Source: Caulobacteraceae bacterium
GTDB lineage: Bacteria > Pseudomonadota > Alphaproteobacteria > Caulobacterales > Aquidulcibacteraceae
Length of the DNA: 64,000 bases
Direction of reading: 5' to 3'
Assembly: GCA_031431115.1 (NCBI GenBank)
Contig: JANPCV010000056.1
Location: forward strand, 26,132 to 90,131
Below the pieces are notes generated by a model. The model made no database searches and was not told where the DNA came from. It saw only the letters and a program-made list of their open reading frames with translations. The number at the start of each line of letters is the position of its first letter. Within the stretch, counting starts at the first letter, position 1. Below, one piece after another: positions 24,657 to 29,980 of this stretch. The position numbers and the translations under genes were made by a program.

Positions 24657-25088
24657 GTGGGACCAGAATGGATCGCAGCAGCGGCTGGTATCGTAGGCGC
24701 TCTCAGCGCCGTTCTCGTGCAGGGCCTTCTGTCTCACTTCGGCGGCGAAACCGAGCGGAAGCGGGAATTGCTTCTCCAGGCATACCAAGCGCTGATAGAG
24801 TCGATGGCTTCCTTGTCTATCGAGCGTCCCGGCGCGGGAGCAACGCGCGATCTTATCGCCGCCAAACAGCGAATCCTGCAGTTCGCTCCGACGGAAGTCG
24901 TTCACGCGCTAGCCGAATTCTGCCGAACATCGCAAATACTCGCCAACACTGATGCGGTGGCAACGTTCGCGCAGCTTCTAAGAGCGATGCGCGGCTCGTT
25001 AGGGATGCCGCCGGTCACGGATGGAGACATGTTGCGCATTCTGGTCAACGCAGATTCCATCGCCGACTATTCGCAACGAGGGACGTGA
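24657..25088 (+). CDS. Hypothetical protein, N-terminal TM helix plus helical domain
   Basis: 143 aa with no motif I recognise. GC is visibly lower than its neighbours and rare codons (cta, tta, ata, aga) are used. The 3' end overlaps the convergent pentapeptide gene by 22 nt. Confidence 0.45.
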   Translation: MGPEWIAAAAGIVGALSAVLVQGLLSHFGGETERKRELLLQAYQALIESMASLSIERPGAGATRDLIAAKQRILQFAPTEVVHALAEFCRTSQILANTDAVATFAQLLRAMRGSLGMPPVTDGDMLRILVNADSIADYSQRGT

Positions 25089-25540
25089 AGACCGCGGGGC
25101 AGTCGGGTGTCTTCATCGCCGCAAGCGGCTGAAAGCTGTTGCTGAGTGAGACCGGCGGAGAAGCGCAAGTCCGCTCCGGCAAAGTTAGCCCGAACAAGTC
25201 GAGCACCGTGAAACTGCGCCCGCGTGAGCGACGCCCGCACGAACCGCGTACGTTCTAAGTCCGCGTCGGTGAAATTCGCACCTTCGAAGCGCGAACCCGA
25301 AGCGTCAGCGCGTGTGAGCACGGCATTCGAAAAATCGGTGCGGCTGAAGTTCGAGTGCGTCATCCGCGCGCCGGTGAGAATTCGGCCTGAAAGATCGCAA
25401 TCTTCGCAGACGCCGCCATAAGCGGGTGCAAGATCGAGGCGCGCGTCGGCGCCGAACGGCCAGAACGCGGACGCCTGGCTCGCCGATGCCGCTGCGAGGG
25501 CGGCCGCCGCGAAAACGGCGAGGCGGAAATGTGTCAGCAC
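25067..25540 (-). CDS. Secreted pentapeptide-repeat protein (PRP-2)
   Basis: Signal peptide MLTHFRLAVFAAAALAAASASQASA. CEDCDLSG cap. Tandem A(D/N)LxX pentapeptides (ANFTDADLERTRFVRASLTRAQFHGARLVRANFAGADL). C-terminal TQQQLSAACGD..TRLPRGLHVPRC. Confidence 0.85.
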   Translation of the reverse strand: MLTHFRLAVFAAAALAAASASQASAFWPFGADARLDLAPAYGGVCEDCDLSGRILTGARMTHSNFSRTDFSNAVLTRADASGSRFEGANFTDADLERTRFVRASLTRAQFHGARLVRANFAGADLRFSAGLTQQQLSAACGDEDTRLPRGLHVPRCE

Positions 25541-25600: not shown

Positions 25601-26137
25601 TTACTGGTTGTTACCGCAGGCAGGGATAGTCATTCCGGCGGGGAGCGTGGTCGTTGCATCGCCGCACGCAGTATTCAGCTGGGTTTGCGTCAGCCCAGTG
25701 GAGGTCGCCAGTTCCGCGCCCGAGAGATTGGCGCCGGTCAGGACGGCTCCGGTCAAACGTGCGCCGCCCAAATAAGCGCCGACAAGAGTCGCGCCCTCAA
25801 GGTTGGCGTCGCTCAGATCAGCGCCGGAGAGGCGGGCGCCAAAGAAGTTGGTCAGCGACATGTTCGCGCCGTGAAAGCGGGTGCGATCCGCAGTGGCGAG
25901 CGAGAGATCGGCTTGGCGGATTCGTGCGCCAGAGAAGTTGCGTCCCGCGACTGATTGATAGGCGAGACTGATCTGGAATAGGTCGCAGTTAGCGCACGAA
26001 GCGCCGCCACGAACGCGAGCGGCGATCGCATCACGCTCGGCTTGGTTGGTGATCGGCCCGCCGGTGGCGGACGGCGCCTGCGCGAAAGCAGGCGTCGTTA
26101 ACGTCAAAAGACAAGCAAATAGCGCGGCGCGTTTCAT
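25601..26137 (-). CDS. Secreted pentapeptide-repeat protein (PRP-1)
   Basis: The start is ATG 26137, giving MKRAALFACLLTLTTPAFAQA (signal peptide). CANCDLFQ cap. Pentapeptide run (GANMSLTNFFGARLSGADLSDANLEGATLVGAYLGGARLTGAVLTGANLSGAEL). C-terminal TQTQLNTACGD..TTLPAGMTIPAC. Confidence 0.85.
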   Translation of the reverse strand: MKRAALFACLLTLTTPAFAQAPSATGGPITNQAERDAIAARVRGGASCANCDLFQISLAYQSVAGRNFSGARIRQADLSLATADRTRFHGANMSLTNFFGARLSGADLSDANLEGATLVGAYLGGARLTGAVLTGANLSGAELATSTGLTQTQLNTACGDATTTLPAGMTIPACGNNQ

Positions 26138-26190
26138 AATGGCGCAACTCCAAAAGAGGTTGCGCTCGCCGTCGCAGGACGCGGGCCAGA

Positions 26191-26625
26191 CTAGCGTCCC
26201 GGGCGCGTGCGCGAGTTCGACGGAATGACGATGTCGCGCGGGCTGCCTGCCGCGACTTGCGCCATGCACATGCGGATCGGGACGGGGCGTAAGCCGCTGC
26301 GTGTCTGGATATACGCCGTTGTGGCGCCGTTGCCGTACTGCTCGATAGAGCCACTCAGGCTGCTGCCGTGTTGGTAGAGGCAGGCGGCGTTGTTGTTGCC
26401 GTTCTGCGCGATCGCGCCGGTGTTGTTAGCGCCGGCCTGACCGAGGCCGGCACTGTTGCCCTGGCCAGCTTGGATGACTGCCGCCGCATGACCCGTACCG
26501 CTCTGACTGACGGTGGCGGTGTTGTAGATGTTGCGCGAGCCCATGCCTTGCGCGTGAGCGCCGCCCGCGAGCAAGGCAGTAAACATCAGCGCGACGAGCG
26601 GCATGGTGAGCGATGGATTTTTCAT
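26191..26625 (-). CDS. Curlin-repeat protein, CsgB-like (minor/nucleator-type)
   Basis: Signal peptide ...LLAGGAHAQ followed by three 22-aa curlin repeats: NTATVSQSGTGHAAAVIQAGQG, NSAGLGQAGANNTGAIAQNGNN and NAACLYQHGSSLSGSIEQYGNG. A degenerate fourth repeat and a basic non-repeat tail follow. Confidence 0.75.
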   Translation of the reverse strand: MKNPSLTMPLVALMFTALLAGGAHAQGMGSRNIYNTATVSQSGTGHAAAVIQAGQGNSAGLGQAGANNTGAIAQNGNNNAACLYQHGSSLSGSIEQYGNGATTAYIQTRSGLRPVPIRMCMAQVAAGSPRDIVIPSNSRTRPGR

Positions 26626-26634
26626 AACGTGACC

Positions 26635-27093
26635 TCAAAGCCTGAATGTGCGGCGGCACAGTTCGCCGGTTTCGTCGCTAAGCGTGAGCACTGCGCGCAC
26701 GCGTGATCCGCGCTCGATGCTGATTTCGTTCTCGCCGAGCGTGGCGGCCATACCCGCTTCGAGCATCAGAGGGCCGCCTTGGCTGAGTTCGGCCGAGCCG
26801 CCGCCGCCAGATTTGATGATCTGGAGATCGTATTCACCGTCGATATCGCGATCGGCGAAGGCGCGTGCCTGGATCAACACGCCGTTGGCCGTGCGCCGTG
26901 AGCGCACTTCGCAGGTGACTGCCGCGTCCTCGTAGCTGGCGCTTATGTCAGCCGCAGGAGCGTCCGAAGCCGGCGCTGCACTCAAGAGAGCAGGTTCAGA
27001 AACCTGCTCCACCGAAGCGTAGTTTTGCGCCGATGCGGAGCATGCCGAAAGCAAAGCCGCGAGCGCGATGAGAGAAACTGATTTCTTAGACAT
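26635..27093 (-). CDS. csgH: Curli-like amyloid chaperone CsgH
   Basis: 152 aa with a signal peptide or possible lipobox (LLSAC). The core CEVRSRRTANGVLIQARAFADRDIDGEYDLQIIKSGGGGSAELSQGGPLMLEAG...RVRAVLTLSDETGELC matches the alphaproteobacterial CsgH pattern as I remember it. It is sandwiched between two curlin-repeat genes. Confidence 0.65.
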   Translation of the reverse strand: MSKKSVSLIALAALLSACSASAQNYASVEQVSEPALLSAAPASDAPAADISASYEDAAVTCEVRSRRTANGVLIQARAFADRDIDGEYDLQIIKSGGGGSAELSQGGPLMLEAGMAATLGENEISIERGSRVRAVLTLSDETGELCRRTFRL

Positions 27094-27161
27094 TGTTCTG
27101 CTCCATCAACTGAAGCGGGAGATGCGGGAAGGGCCGAGTGCGCCTTCCCGCACGATCACCG

Positions 27162-27668
27162 TCAGTTGTAGCCGCTTTGGACCACCACCGAGATGTTGCC
27201 TTCGCCGCGTTGGCGGACTTCGACGTCCTGACCGTTGCCGATCTGGATGATGCCTGACGTGTTGTTCACGCCGTCTTGGTCAGTCACTGCGCGGCTGCCG
27301 TTCCCGATCTGCGCGACGCCGGCGACGTTGCCCCGGCCCGTCTGGATCGTATCGGCGCGCAGGTTGCGGCCTTCTTGACCCGTGGCGGAGAAGTTGTCGC
27401 GGCCGACTTGCGTCGTGGTGACGTGGTTGCGCGTCCCGTATTGGTCCATGCGCATGAAGTTGTTGTAGCCCTCTTGGACGCCGCGTGCGTAGTGGCGCCC
27501 GCCGCGTTGATTGACAACCGCGCCATTGCGATCACCAGTTTGAGCTGCGCCCGCAGCATTGGCGTAACCGGATTGGTTCACAACAGTGCGGTTTTGAGCG
27601 TGAGCCGCGCCAACACCCATGCTGGCGAAGAGAGCGGCGGCGGCGACGGCAGTCATAAAGCGTTTCAT
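27162..27668 (-). CDS. Curlin-repeat protein, CsgA-like (major subunit-type)
   Basis: Signal peptide ...GVGAAHAQ followed by 6.5 exact 22-aa repeats of N-x5-Q-x-G-x8-Q-x-G-x2. These are NRTVVNQSGYANAAGAAQTGDR, NGAVVNQRGGRHYARGVQEGYN, NFMRMDQYGTRNHVTTTQVGRD, NFSATGQEGRNLRADTIQTGRG, NVAGVAQIGNGSRAVTDQDGVN, NTSGIIQIGNGQDVEVRQRGEG and NISVVVQSGYN. Confidence 0.8.
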   Translation of the reverse strand: MKRFMTAVAAAALFASMGVGAAHAQNRTVVNQSGYANAAGAAQTGDRNGAVVNQRGGRHYARGVQEGYNNFMRMDQYGTRNHVTTTQVGRDNFSATGQEGRNLRADTIQTGRGNVAGVAQIGNGSRAVTDQDGVNNTSGIIQIGNGQDVEVRQRGEGNISVVVQSGYN

Positions 27669-27669
27669 G

Positions 27670-27760
27670 GTTCAAGCTCCCAAGTTCAAGTGACAGCGCA
27701 CCCTCGCCAGCGCTTGAACGAATGAGACGATGCCGTGAACGACCTGAGCGGCGTTTGAAC
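27670..27760 (-). repeat. GTTCAAG/CTTGAAC heptamer array in the csgA-like leader
   Basis: Plus strand carries GTTCAAG at 27670-76 and 27684-90, CTTGAAC at 27713-19, GTGAAC at 27735-40 and TTTGAAC at 27754-60. In mRNA sense this reads GTTCAAG-N22-CTTGAAC-uuGGGAG-CTTGAAC-c-AUG, so the copies bracket the SD. Confidence 0.6.
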
Positions 27761-27929
27761 AAGAGCTTCAGCGAGCAGTTTTTGTTGATTGATTTCAGCC
27801 GCCTCGCGCGCACGCGCGTGATGCCGATCTCGGGCTGAACCGGCGCTGAATGGTGGAGGCCTTTGCATCCAAGCCGCGCACCACACGCATCTGATCGGCA
27901 AGGCCCGCTCGGAGGGCCGGAGGACGAGG

Positions 27930-28589
27930 ATGGCGTCGCTTGAACTGAGGGGCGTAGGCAAAGCCTACGGCCGCAAACGCGTGCTTCAGGATATTTCCCT
28001 GACGTTCGAGCCAGGATTGGCGCTGCTCGTAGGGCCGAGCGGGGCGGGCAAATCAACGCTGCTGCGTTTGATCGCGTCTGCTGAGCGCCCAAACAGCGGT
28101 GCTATTCTTTGGAACGGACGCGCCGGGAGCGGGGCGTTGCGCAGAGCGCTAGGATATGCGCCGCAGGCTGTCGATCTGCCGGAGGATTTAACTGCGCGCG
28201 AATTTGCGATGCACATAGCGGCGCTCAAAGGACTGAATCTCGCACAGGCGGACAAACAGTTCGGCGCGATTACCGATGCCATCGGCCTGCACGCCGATAT
28301 CAACAATAGGATTGCTAGCTTCTCTGGCGGCATGCGCCGCCGTCTGATTTTTGCGCAAGCGTTGCTCGGCGAACCCGAAGTGCTGGCGCTGGACGAGCCA
28401 ACCGCAGAACTGGACGGTGAGACCGCGAGAAAGCTCAGCGCCTTGATCGTCGAGCGCTCGAAAAACGCCATTGTGGTGGTGACGACCCACCTGGCAGATG
28501 AACTCGCGCCCTCTGCACGCGCTGTGCTGCGGGTGGAGAACGGCAATGTCTTGTCGGCCCCCGGGATGCGGCTGGAGGACGTGGCTTGA
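27930..28589 (+). CDS. ABC transporter ATP-binding protein
   Basis: 219 aa with Walker A GPSGAGKST, signature FSGGMRRR and Walker B VLALDEPTAELD. Divergent from the curlin genes. Confidence 0.9.
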   Translation: MASLELRGVGKAYGRKRVLQDISLTFEPGLALLVGPSGAGKSTLLRLIASAERPNSGAILWNGRAGSGALRRALGYAPQAVDLPEDLTAREFAMHIAALKGLNLAQADKQFGAITDAIGLHADINNRIASFSGGMRRRLIFAQALLGEPEVLALDEPTAELDGETARKLSALIVERSKNAIVVVTTHLADELAPSARAVLRVENGNVLSAPGMRLEDVA

Positions 28590-29980
28590 GCGCTTCGGTG
28601 ATCTCCGCCTCGTCGTTCAGCACGTCGATGCTGCGCTACGGCCGCAGCCGCGCTCTGTGGCTCATGTTGCTCGTTGCGCCGATCGGTGCGCGTTACATGC
28701 TGCCGTTTGAGGATGGTGGCGGCATCAAGATCGCTGTCGGTGACGCGCTGCCGGTGATGACCTCGCCGTTCCTCGGCGTTTCGCTCGGCATCATCGTCTC
28801 GACATTGCTGCTGCCGATCGCGTGGCTTTATTTGCGCTCCAACACAACGCGGCGGCAGCCGTGGCAAGTTGAGGAAGTTACGGCGGGCTCGCGTGTGGCA
28901 ATCGCGCTCGGGCGCTTTGGGGCAGACGTCGGCGTGCTGCTCGGCATCCTCGCGGCGCTCAATCTTGCGGGGCTCTACCTTTCCACGTTCATGCTTCAGG
29001 GCGATGCGCTCAATTTGGCGGAGCTCAGCTTTGCCCTGTGGGTCGTCGCCGCGCCGGCGATGATTGGCTTGGCGGCACTGCGCATTCTTTTTGATACGCG
29101 ACCGCTGTTGCGCTCAGGCTTTGGTGACTTCGCGTACTTTTGCATTTGGATCGGATCAATCACGGCGCCGATCGTGACCGACAAGGCCGAGCCAAGCTTC
29201 GGCGCCAACATGTGGGACTTCGCGGGCTTCGTTACGCCGCTGAAGTATGGCGCGCCCGAGGGCACGGACAGCTTTTCGATTGGCGGCGGGTTTCTTGCCA
29301 CCGGTACGATTGATCTCGACGTCATGGCTGGGCTGCTGTCGCCTGGTTATCTCGAGTCGCGGCTGGCGTGGATCGCGATTGCTGTGGCGCTCGTCGTTGT
29401 CGGCGGCCTGATTTATGTGCCGCACAAAGCCAAGAAGCGAGCTGTGCTGACCGGCCGTCTCGGGGCCTTGCTGAATGCCGGGCGCCCGCCGCGCGCAATT
29501 CCGGACGCGCCAGCAGCGAAGCGTGCGTTCACGAGCGCGCTGAATTTGGTGACTGCCGAGTTTCGGTTGATTGGATCGGGCCGCGCGTTTTTGCTGCTGG
29601 CCACCGCCGTCGGCGTGATCGCGGCAGTGGCGCCAGATTTCCGGCACGCGTCAAGTCCGGCCGCCCTGTTGCTGCTGTTGTTTGCGTTGAGCGCGCACGC
29701 TGGGCGGGCAGAGGCGCATGGCTTAGTGGCGCTGACTAAGGTTGCAGCATTGGCGCCCATGGCTCGGCGCGCAGCATTCGTCGTGTCAGGCGCGTTATGG
29801 TCGACGTTGTTGGCGCTACCAGCTCTATTGCGGCACCCGCCGCTTGAGACGCTGGCGCTCGCGTCGGCTACGGGCGCTGGCGCGGCGTTCGTGGCGATCG
29901 TGCTTTCAACGCTAACGGGATCATCGTTCGCATCGCGCCTGGTGTTGCTCGTGCTCTGGTACGGATACGCGTCAACGTGA
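28586..29980 (+). CDS. Polytopic membrane protein (putative ABC permease partner, unclassified)
   Basis: 464 aa with about 10 or more hydrophobic helices. TTG/GTG start overlaps the ATPase stop (translational coupling). I recognise no family motif. Confidence 0.6.
   Translation: MSASVISASSFSTSMLRYGRSRALWLMLLVAPIGARYMLPFEDGGGIKIAVGDALPVMTSPFLGVSLGIIVSTLLLPIAWLYLRSNTTRRQPWQVEEVTAGSRVAIALGRFGADVGVLLGILAALNLAGLYLSTFMLQGDALNLAELSFALWVVAAPAMIGLAALRILFDTRPLLRSGFGDFAYFCIWIGSITAPIVTDKAEPSFGANMWDFAGFVTPLKYGAPEGTDSFSIGGGFLATGTIDLDVMAGLLSPGYLESRLAWIAIAVALVVVGGLIYVPHKAKKRAVLTGRLGALLNAGRPPRAIPDAPAAKRAFTSALNLVTAEFRLIGSGRAFLLLATAVGVIAAVAPDFRHASSPAALLLLLFALSAHAGRAEAHGLVALTKVAALAPMARRAAFVVSGALWSTLLALPALLRHPPLETLALASATGAGAAFVAIVLSTLTGSSFASRLVLLVLWYGYAST

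Follow-up and report, generated by a model that had tools for sequence, protein, structure and literature searches.

The 64,000-nucleotide (nt) stretch analysed here (hereafter the window; positions 26,132 to 90,131 of contig JANPCV010000056.1, assembly GCA_031431115.1, of a Caulobacteraceae bacterium) contains three consecutive genes that encode two proteins built from curlin repeats and, between them, a protein of the CsgH chaperone family. The three genes follow each other head to tail on one strand (the names CurA and CurB are our own labels for the curlins), at the following positions, counted from the first letter of the window:

27162-27668, minus strand: CurA, a curlin of 168 amino acids (aa)
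26635-27093, minus strand: CsgH, a 152-aa protein of the CsgC-like, anti-amyloid chaperone family, encoded by the middle gene
26191-26625, minus strand: CurB, the second curlin, 144 aa

The intergenic gaps measure 68 and 9 nt, and CurA, CsgH and CurB (the trio in what follows) very probably constitute one transcription unit. We consider it likely that the locus is a self-contained curlin-CsgH-curlin cassette, of a CsgG-less type that has already been catalogued in Alphaproteobacteria. For comparison, 46 related loci were fetched, which add up to 474 kb and include some redundant ones; 23 of them span 10 kb or more (individual loci are cited by numbers beginning with L). The nearest named CsgH is that of Candidatus Viadribacter manganicus (81% identity), with further matches in Terricaulis, in Vitreimonas and in metagenome-assembled genomes (MAGs) assigned to Hyphomonadaceae or Caulobacteraceae; the organism is a member of the Viadribacter/Terricaulis/Vitreimonas clade in the order Caulobacterales, for which the family Aquidulcibacteraceae has recently been put forward (PMC12700997).

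CurA matches the Curlin_rpt model of Pfam (PF07012) in 6 stretches at 71.8 bits (E-value 4e-20, cut-off 20.7 bits). Its 13 QxG motifs follow each other at an exact spacing of 11 residues, which amounts to 6.5 repeats of 22 residues without a single insertion or deletion; the pattern N-x5-Q-x-G-x8-Q-x-G fits all of the repeats, and the autocorrelation of the curlin sequence peaks at lags of 11, 22 and 33 residues. The repeats begin straight after a predicted Sec signal peptide (AHA-Q, with cleavage after AHA at residue 24, as judged by eye), leaving no non-repeat N-terminal segment. The AlphaFold2 (AF2) model of the protein (predicted local distance difference test score, pLDDT, 80.5) consists of 13 short strands of ~9 residues. 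Furthermore, the CurA orthologues (taken from the fetched DNA loci) are all 168 aa long and 84-96% identical across the clade, a conservation on par with that of AspS, while in the same comparisons CsgH is 53-81% and CurB 38-76% identical. The final ~58 residues of CurA are nearly invariant in the clade alignment, and even at a distant locus (L030), where CsgH retains only 41% identity, CurA is 71% identical.

The second curlin, CurB, reaches 54.8 bits on the same Pfam model (E-value 9e-15) and contains 6 QxG motifs at exact 11-residue spacing (i.e. three repeats of 22 residues), which are followed by a degenerate half repeat and by a basic tail of 38 residues (7 K/R against 1 D/E). As in CurA, the predicted Sec signal peptide ends in AHA-Q (judged by eye). 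In spite of the low identity among the CurB orthologues, all of them keep two cysteines, one in the third repeat and another in the tail (Cys82 and Cys120 in the window precursor), together with the motif QTR-G...P...C, and both the cysteine pair and the motif are also kept at the distant locus L030. The conservation of this pair suggests that a disulfide pins the CurB tail to the last repeat.

The product of the middle gene exceeds the cut-offs of both Pfam PF21112 (35.7 bits, cut-off 27) and NCBIfam NF041112 chap_CsgH_alph (76 bits, cut-off 35), and a profile of 20 CsgH homologues matches the CsgH structure of Rhodopseudomonas palustris (2n59) with an E-value of 2e-6. In its AF2 model, residues ~59-151 form a seven-strand beta-sandwich (pLDDT above 90 in the domain and below 50 in the linker that precedes it), for which the sole matches in the Protein Data Bank (PDB) with E-values below 1e-3 in a Foldseek search are 2n59 (template modelling score, TM, 0.73) and CsgC (2xsk, TM 0.82). 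The protein begins with a predicted lipoprotein signal (lipobox LSAC, Cys18; judged by eye), and between lipobox and domain lies an Ala/Pro-rich linker of ~40 residues that is disordered in the model. Cys18, Cys61 and Cys146 are invariant in the 20 homologues. An exhaustive search of 1.84 billion representatives gave 657 members of the CsgH family at E-values of at most 1e-3, and a lipobox was found in 124 of the 150 best-matching family representatives (a ranking biased towards lipobox types, as the query profile covered the signal region); judging from these predicted signals, membrane tethering appears to be common among the CsgH proteins in this part of the family. In the window, as in each related locus with enough sequence, a curlin gene stands on either side of the CsgH gene.

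These results agree with what the sequence-only reading of the window had described, namely two curlins with exact 22-residue repeats around a CsgH-type gene: Pfam models place all three proteins above their cut-offs (as does the NCBIfam model for CsgH), the repeat counts concur, and the gene spacers and coordinates of the open reading frames (ORFs) match. Moreover, a comparison of gene order showed that CurA-CsgH-CurB is constant, with nearly constant spacings, wherever sequence suffices among the 46 fetched loci, and that the genomic contexts in which this order is found differ. One setting, that of the window, is the interval from a class II ribonucleotide reductase (RNR) gene to aspS; in others the trio is found between genes for a histidine kinase and a PAD_porph protein (L020), between rplA and rplJ (L022) or beside a Peptidase_S41 gene (L030), and metagenome contigs add further contexts. 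Between unrelated contexts, the similarity starts ~110-140 nt upstream of the CurA ATG and not earlier, which delimits a conserved leader. Its features, together with a hairpin found at the other end of the trio (in the gap that precedes PRP1, the neighbouring gene for a pentapeptide-repeat protein), are the following:

27669-27778, minus strand: conserved leader, ~110 nt upstream of CurA, present in every genomic context of the trio
27684-27719, minus strand: imperfect leader hairpin, directly 5' of the Shine-Dalgarno sequence
27677-27681, minus strand: Shine-Dalgarno sequence GGGAG of CurA
26142-26165, minus strand: GC-rich hairpin GCGCAACCTC-TTTT-GGAGTTGCGC, in the 53-nt gap from the CurB stop to the PRP1 start

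Since the trio possesses a conserved leader of its own and is found in several different chromosomal contexts, we regard it as a self-contained cassette; the comparison indicates that the unit is exactly three genes plus the ~110-nt leader, moving as a block. An alignment of 14 leader sequences contains 46 invariant columns and shows a repeated GTTCAA(G/A)C motif, while a search of the leader against Rfam and a scan for the sigma-70 consensus were both without match. The leader probably holds the promoter and the 5' untranslated region (UTR), and could act as a promoter plus operator or as a regulatory 5' UTR. At the opposite end, the hairpin at 26142-26165 was read from the sequence and then folded, and its 3' arm includes the Shine-Dalgarno sequence of the next gene. 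The same hairpin follows CurB in L002 and L008, which have the same junction, and other strong hairpins stand at the same place where different DNA follows CurB (L005, L014 and L015). A consensus terminator scan of the trio region did not call this hairpin, because it has no T run; probably the trio transcript ends here, or read-through is attenuated.

The statement of the sequence-only reading that the module (two curlins and a CsgH chaperone) comes without linked csgE, csgF or csgG genes is likewise supported. Searches with phmmer, in which E. coli CsgG, CsgF, CsgE and CsgD were compared with the six-frame ORFs of the window, gave a best E-value of ~1. After CsgG and CsgF of Indioceanicola (Azospirillaceae) and two-sequence hidden Markov models (HMMs) were added, the best E-value in the window was 0.06, on short non-coding frames (best matches by family: CsgG above 1, CsgF 0.06 and CsgE 3, the latter two on short non-coding frames). 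As a positive control, the E. coli queries found csgG (4e-63) and csgF (9e-12) on the Indioceanicola replicon; a second control was L054 (csgG 2e-72, csgF 3e-11), an unrelated metagenome locus with the canonical order curlin-curlin-csgF-csgG that had been picked up at 36% identity. Apart from this control, no CsgG, CsgF or CsgE was found at the related genome loci or at the 23 metagenome loci. Other outer-membrane machinery encoded in the window was considered and rejected, as a Pfam scan of ten envelope-type window proteins (including a BepA-like M48/TPR protease, a DsbA/ScsC-like protein, AmiC, PBP1A and a YhdP-like protein) returned housekeeping types and no channel; the ~40 other window ORFs were covered by the CsgG/F/E searches alone.

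An arrangement of this kind has precedents. Dueholm et al. 2012 (PMC3521004) reported many Alphaproteobacteria in which only curlins and csgH could be identified, and their Table S1 lists curlin-CsgH-curlin sets with empty CsgE/F/G entries for Agrobacterium tumefaciens C58, Agrobacterium H13-3 and Chelativorans BNC1, as well as for Rhizobium etli CFN42, Jannaschia CCS1 and others; for Agrobacterium, Chelativorans and Jannaschia the accessions are consecutive in the order curlin, csgH, curlin (PMC3521004). As these trios have no csgE/F/G, the premise of the sequence-only reading that alphaproteobacterial loci usually comprise csgH, csgA/B, csgF and csgG holds for some lineages only: the inclusion of csgF and csgG is normal in lineages such as Rhodopseudomonas, Rhodomicrobium and Hyphomicrobium. 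In a broader survey (Sleutel et al. 2023, PMC10192328), CsgH was found in 1,839 genomes, and 1,033 of 43,279 CsgA-containing genomes were without CsgG. Furthermore, a 2026 preprint reports that the Agrobacterium trio atu4766-4768 is expressed and belongs to the FeuPQ envelope regulon, with a place among its most strongly regulated members. The channel-less trio arrangement has thus been known in Alphaproteobacteria since 2012, and the locus described here is another example of it and not a new system.

The closest structural parallels are the trios of Rhizobiales (A. tumefaciens atu4766-4768, R. etli and Chelativorans BNC1), which have the same order and strand, no csgE/F/G nearby, and a shared layout (a curlin of ~5.5-6.5 repeats, CsgH, and a shorter curlin with a non-repeat extension). 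On the R. etli plasmid p42e (RHE_RS24875-24865), the genes are annotated as curlin, csgH and 'hypothetical' (the last one a curlin), in the same order and on the same strand, and neither csgF nor csgG is found near them. CurA is 36% identical to the first R. etli curlin (E-value 3e-22), and the two CsgH proteins are 40% identical (E-value 3e-13). In tblastn searches against plasmids, CurA found the rhizobial trios, whereas CsgH gave no match. The two systems differ in details: the R. etli CsgH has an ordinary signal peptide and no lipobox, whereas the window CsgH is a predicted lipoprotein with a ~40-residue Ala/Pro linker; the extension is C-terminal, basic and furnished with a cysteine pair in CurB, but N-terminal in the second R. 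etli curlin; CurA is free of cysteines, whereas the first curlin of R. etli has two near its C-terminus; and the gap between CsgH and the following curlin is 9 nt in the window and 192 nt in R. etli.

The E. coli system (csgBAC/csgDEFG, type VIII secretion) likewise has two curlin-repeat subunits with Sec signals and a small periplasmic beta-sandwich chaperone of the CsgC fold (2xsk, the structure matched above), encoded beside the subunits. It differs in the position of the chaperone gene (after the subunit genes for CsgC, between them for CsgH) and in the possession of CsgG, CsgF, CsgE and CsgD, none of which was found in the window. The Gly-rich N22 segment of the E. coli type is missing from CurA; as a mark of independence from CsgG this absence was discarded, since it is uninformative (Indioceanicola curlins encoded beside csgF-csgG also lack such a segment). 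Operons of the R. palustris type (R. palustris, Rhodomicrobium and Hyphomicrobium MC1) share with the window the CsgH family and the type of curlin repeat, but carry csgF and csgG beside the subunits (Table S1), which the window locus does not. The window CsgH is, moreover, a predicted lipoprotein; the construct of the solved R. palustris CsgH (2n59) starts at residue 10 (PMC4838910). Within the same order as the window organism, the Caulobacter holdfast system (HfaA/HfaB/HfaD) comprises a curlin-like protein, HfaA, that forms SDS-resistant multimers (PMC6707917), and a CsgG-like protein, HfaB, that is required for HfaA on the surface (PMC6707917). The Hfa locus is without CsgH, the trio is without HfaB or HfaD, and no hfa gene was seen in the window; as a speculation, HfaB may be considered a possible unlinked channel for CurA and CurB.

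On the basis of these likenesses, a sequence of events can be proposed. By analogy with E. coli curli, CurA and CurB would enter the periplasm through Sec as unfolded chains. The R. palustris CsgH blocks amyloid formation by CsgA and FapC in vitro (PMC4838910), and sub-stoichiometric inhibition of curlin nucleation has been demonstrated, in vitro, for this CsgH alone (PMC4838910); by the same analogy, the lipid-anchored CsgH of the window may reach into the periplasm on its flexible linker and there stop premature nucleation. CurA, with its invariant C-terminal repeats, would be the polymerising beta-solenoid subunit, and CurB (short, fast-evolving and with a basic tail) could be a specialised minor subunit that serves as nucleator, anchor or cap.

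Several points weigh against the explanation given here. Fibre formation by the CurA and CurB proteins is a prediction, and the signal peptides, the lipobox and the CurB disulfide were all read from sequence. A Foldseek search of the CurA model against the PDB returned nothing significant and only weak beta-helix matches, among which the CsgA fibril (8enq) ranked 7th (E-value 0.08). On the equivalog models for CsgA (NF007470, cut-off 160) and CsgB (NF007506, cut-off 165), CurA scores 47.9 and 73.5 and CurB 25.8 and 39.4, respectively; as both curlins fall far short of these thresholds and each fits the CsgB model better, homology cannot tell which of them equals CsgA and which CsgB, two proteins that are distinguishable in Gammaproteobacteria only (Dueholm et al. 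2012, PMC3521004). The leader hairpin, as folded by RNAalifold, rests mainly on invariant or wobble pairs and on one compensatory pair only. Finally, the designation 'CsgG-less' covers the 64-kb window and the flanks of the relatives up to 10 kb only.

The genes that surround the trio on both sides are relevant to the question of export:

25601-26137, minus strand: PRP1, a pentapeptide-repeat protein of 178 aa with a predicted signal peptide
25067-25540, minus strand: PRP2, a pentapeptide-repeat protein of 157 aa with a predicted signal peptide
27930-28589, plus strand: ATPase of an ATP-binding cassette (ABC) pair, 219 aa, divergent from the trio
28586-29980, plus strand: permease of the ABC pair, 464 aa, without a Pfam family

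The sequence-only reading had put these immediate neighbours forward as candidates for the missing partners, in the sense that PRP1, PRP2 and/or the ABC pair (27930-29980) would supply the export or templating machinery. The attraction of this idea is evident from the map (the pentapeptide genes adjoin the trio on the same strand with a CurB-PRP1 gap of 53 nt, and the arrangement of trio and neighbours recurs in several relatives) and from the proteins themselves, given that PRP1 is about as conserved as CurA and that both pentapeptide-repeat proteins have predicted signal peptides and are, like curlin, beta-helical. Nevertheless, we consider it very improbable, and already largely refuted by the comparative data, because trio and neighbours are found apart in both directions among relatives. 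On the one hand, the trio occurs without pentapeptide or ABC genes in L020, L022, L030, L033, L036, L038, L044, L048 and R. etli (L024); on the other, four more distant relatives (L026-L029: alpha proteobacterium U9-1i, a Vitreimonas MAG, a Terricaulis genome and VFQR01) have PRP1 in the RNR-AspS interval but neither curlin nor CsgH at that site, PRP1 being accompanied by PRP2 in three of the four and by the ABC pair in one. Even where the RNR...AspS context is kept, the ABC pair may be missing (L010), and CurB and PRP1 may be separated by an oppositely oriented gene for a Crp-family regulator (L005, L011) or by a 3.5-kb insert (L014, L015). Moreover, the ABC pair differs from the transporters of type I secretion (its ATPase is separate, its permease has no Pfam family, and it comes without a membrane-fusion or TolC partner); as a type I exporter it was rejected, there being no membrane-fusion/TolC gene and the pair being absent from L010 and from all contexts other than that of RNR. 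On this comparative evidence, the insertion site is home to the pentapeptide genes and the ABC pair, neither of which belongs to the trio unit.

With the neighbours set aside and the trio taken as a self-contained cassette, two accounts of the outer-membrane step have to be weighed, which we hold to be about equally likely. One of them sees a canonical system that has been split, with an unlinked CsgG-family channel (a csgFG pair or HfaB, the CsgG-like holdfast anchor typical of Caulobacterales) exporting CurA and CurB; the trio would in that case supply the subunits of an ordinary type VIII secretion system. This account, possible though tentative, draws on the presence of CsgG in 98% of CsgA-containing genomes (PMC10192328), on a host that belongs to Caulobacterales, where the CsgG-like HfaB is needed for the surface placement of the curlin-like HfaA (PMC6707917) and where holdfast genes are reported broadly across the order (PMC12700997), and on a view of the genome limited to 64 kb. 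It has to contend with the finding that neither CsgG nor CsgF was found in the window or in the flanks (up to 10 kb) of the related trio copies, and with the complete trio-bearing genomes of A. tumefaciens C58 and R. etli CFN42, for which the HMM survey of Dueholm et al. 2012 lists no CsgG or CsgF, so that in at least some lineages the trio persists without them. The same homologous trios in complete genomes speak for the other account, in which the curlins stay in the envelope (in the periplasm or on the inside of the outer membrane) or leave by a route other than CsgG while a lipid-anchored CsgH controls the place and time of polymerisation; in line with it, the trio is complete, mobile and strongly conserved and never travels with a channel gene, Dueholm et al. 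inferred 'different pathways to amyloid biogenesis', the A. tumefaciens trio belongs to the FeuPQ envelope-stress regulon, and membrane tethering of CsgH is widespread (as judged by the lipobox count among the best representatives). Against this stand the lack of any candidate route or component, the general toxicity of periplasmic amyloid (which is the reason for CsgC and CsgH), a basis formed by the 64-kb window and the flanks of related copies, and the design of the Dueholm survey, which counted CsgG only beside csg genes and may have set unlinked paralogues aside; we regard a CsgG-independent pathway, too, as no better than a tentative proposal. Its fullest version, that the trios represent a distinct, CsgG-free, curli-like pathway in which a tethered CsgH gates CurA, a disulfide-stapled CurB nucleates or anchors the polymer, and export follows an undescribed route, is in our opinion conceivable but rather doubtful.

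With this locus, a class of operons on record for more than ten years, which encode amyloid subunits and a safety chaperone but no known exit, gains a well-defined example. The comparative work narrows the problem, in that the functional unit is bounded, relocates as a block and can be considered apart from its tempting neighbours. The extreme conservation of CurA, the cysteine pair of CurB, the predicted lipoprotein form of CsgH (with regard to the curli literature) and the missing Pfam annotation of CurA appear to be new or little noted; these details are incremental, and the question that the locus illustrates, how curlins might be exported without CsgG, is a real one that was already posed in 2012. 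The first three of them (CurA conservation, CurB cysteine pair and the putative lipid anchor of CsgH) offer starting points for the study of CsgG-independent amyloid handling, and for the idea of a distinct CsgG-free pathway, raised by Dueholm et al. 2012, this clade provides an unusually clean, compact and mobile form of the cassette.

In practical terms, automated surveys probably under-count CurA-type curlins, because such proteins lack precomputed Pfam hits and word-indexed searching is blind to them. We observed that the CurA orthologues of L002, L005, L020, L022 and L030 carry no precomputed Pfam annotation in a large protein collection, in spite of the 71.8 bits obtained by hmmscan, and that a word-indexed search of a 5.8-billion-protein collection with CurA returned 9 matches, the query itself not being among them. 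Several of these 9 matches are chimeric or fragmentary ORFs that share only the invariant C-terminal block, and are probably artefacts of metagenome assembly or gene calling.

Two of the related loci deserve mention for their setting. In L022 (2917-4399; JAUIJZ010000038.1, a MAG), the trio is located within the ribosomal protein/RNA polymerase cluster, between rplK-rplA and rplJ-rplL-rpoB-rpoC, an unusual site for accessory genes, and is accompanied by a hydrolase gene and a glutathione peroxidase gene. The MAG of Terricaulis sp. ATF_18 has two copies of the trio (L009 and L012, on JBEBHI01 contigs 48 and 83); both contigs stop shortly past CurB, probably as a result of an assembly broken by repeats.

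The interval between RNR and PRP1 is a variable region across lineages (L026-L029, L002, L005), which contains the ABC pair and the trio, the ABC pair and a 356-aa gene, a 347-aa gene and a ParA/Sel1 protein, a TIR-domain protein and ParA/Sel1, or nothing at all. PRP1, on the other hand, is a constant occupant of the RNR-aspS interval throughout the clade, with the trio or without it, and its identity is 71% or higher in more than 120 clusters (defined at 90% identity). Both PRP1 and PRP2 end in a cysteine-containing segment (ACGD...P.C). The ABC ATPase is translationally coupled to the 464-aa membrane protein, and the pair is found in many relatives (including the trio-less L028). Between aspS and PRP2 lies an ORF of 143 aa (24657-25088, plus strand, no Pfam match), which shares 22 nt at its 3' end with the end of PRP2; close relatives (L001 and L031) have it too, while Viadribacter and several Terricaulis have an unannotated 242-aa gene on the opposite strand instead.

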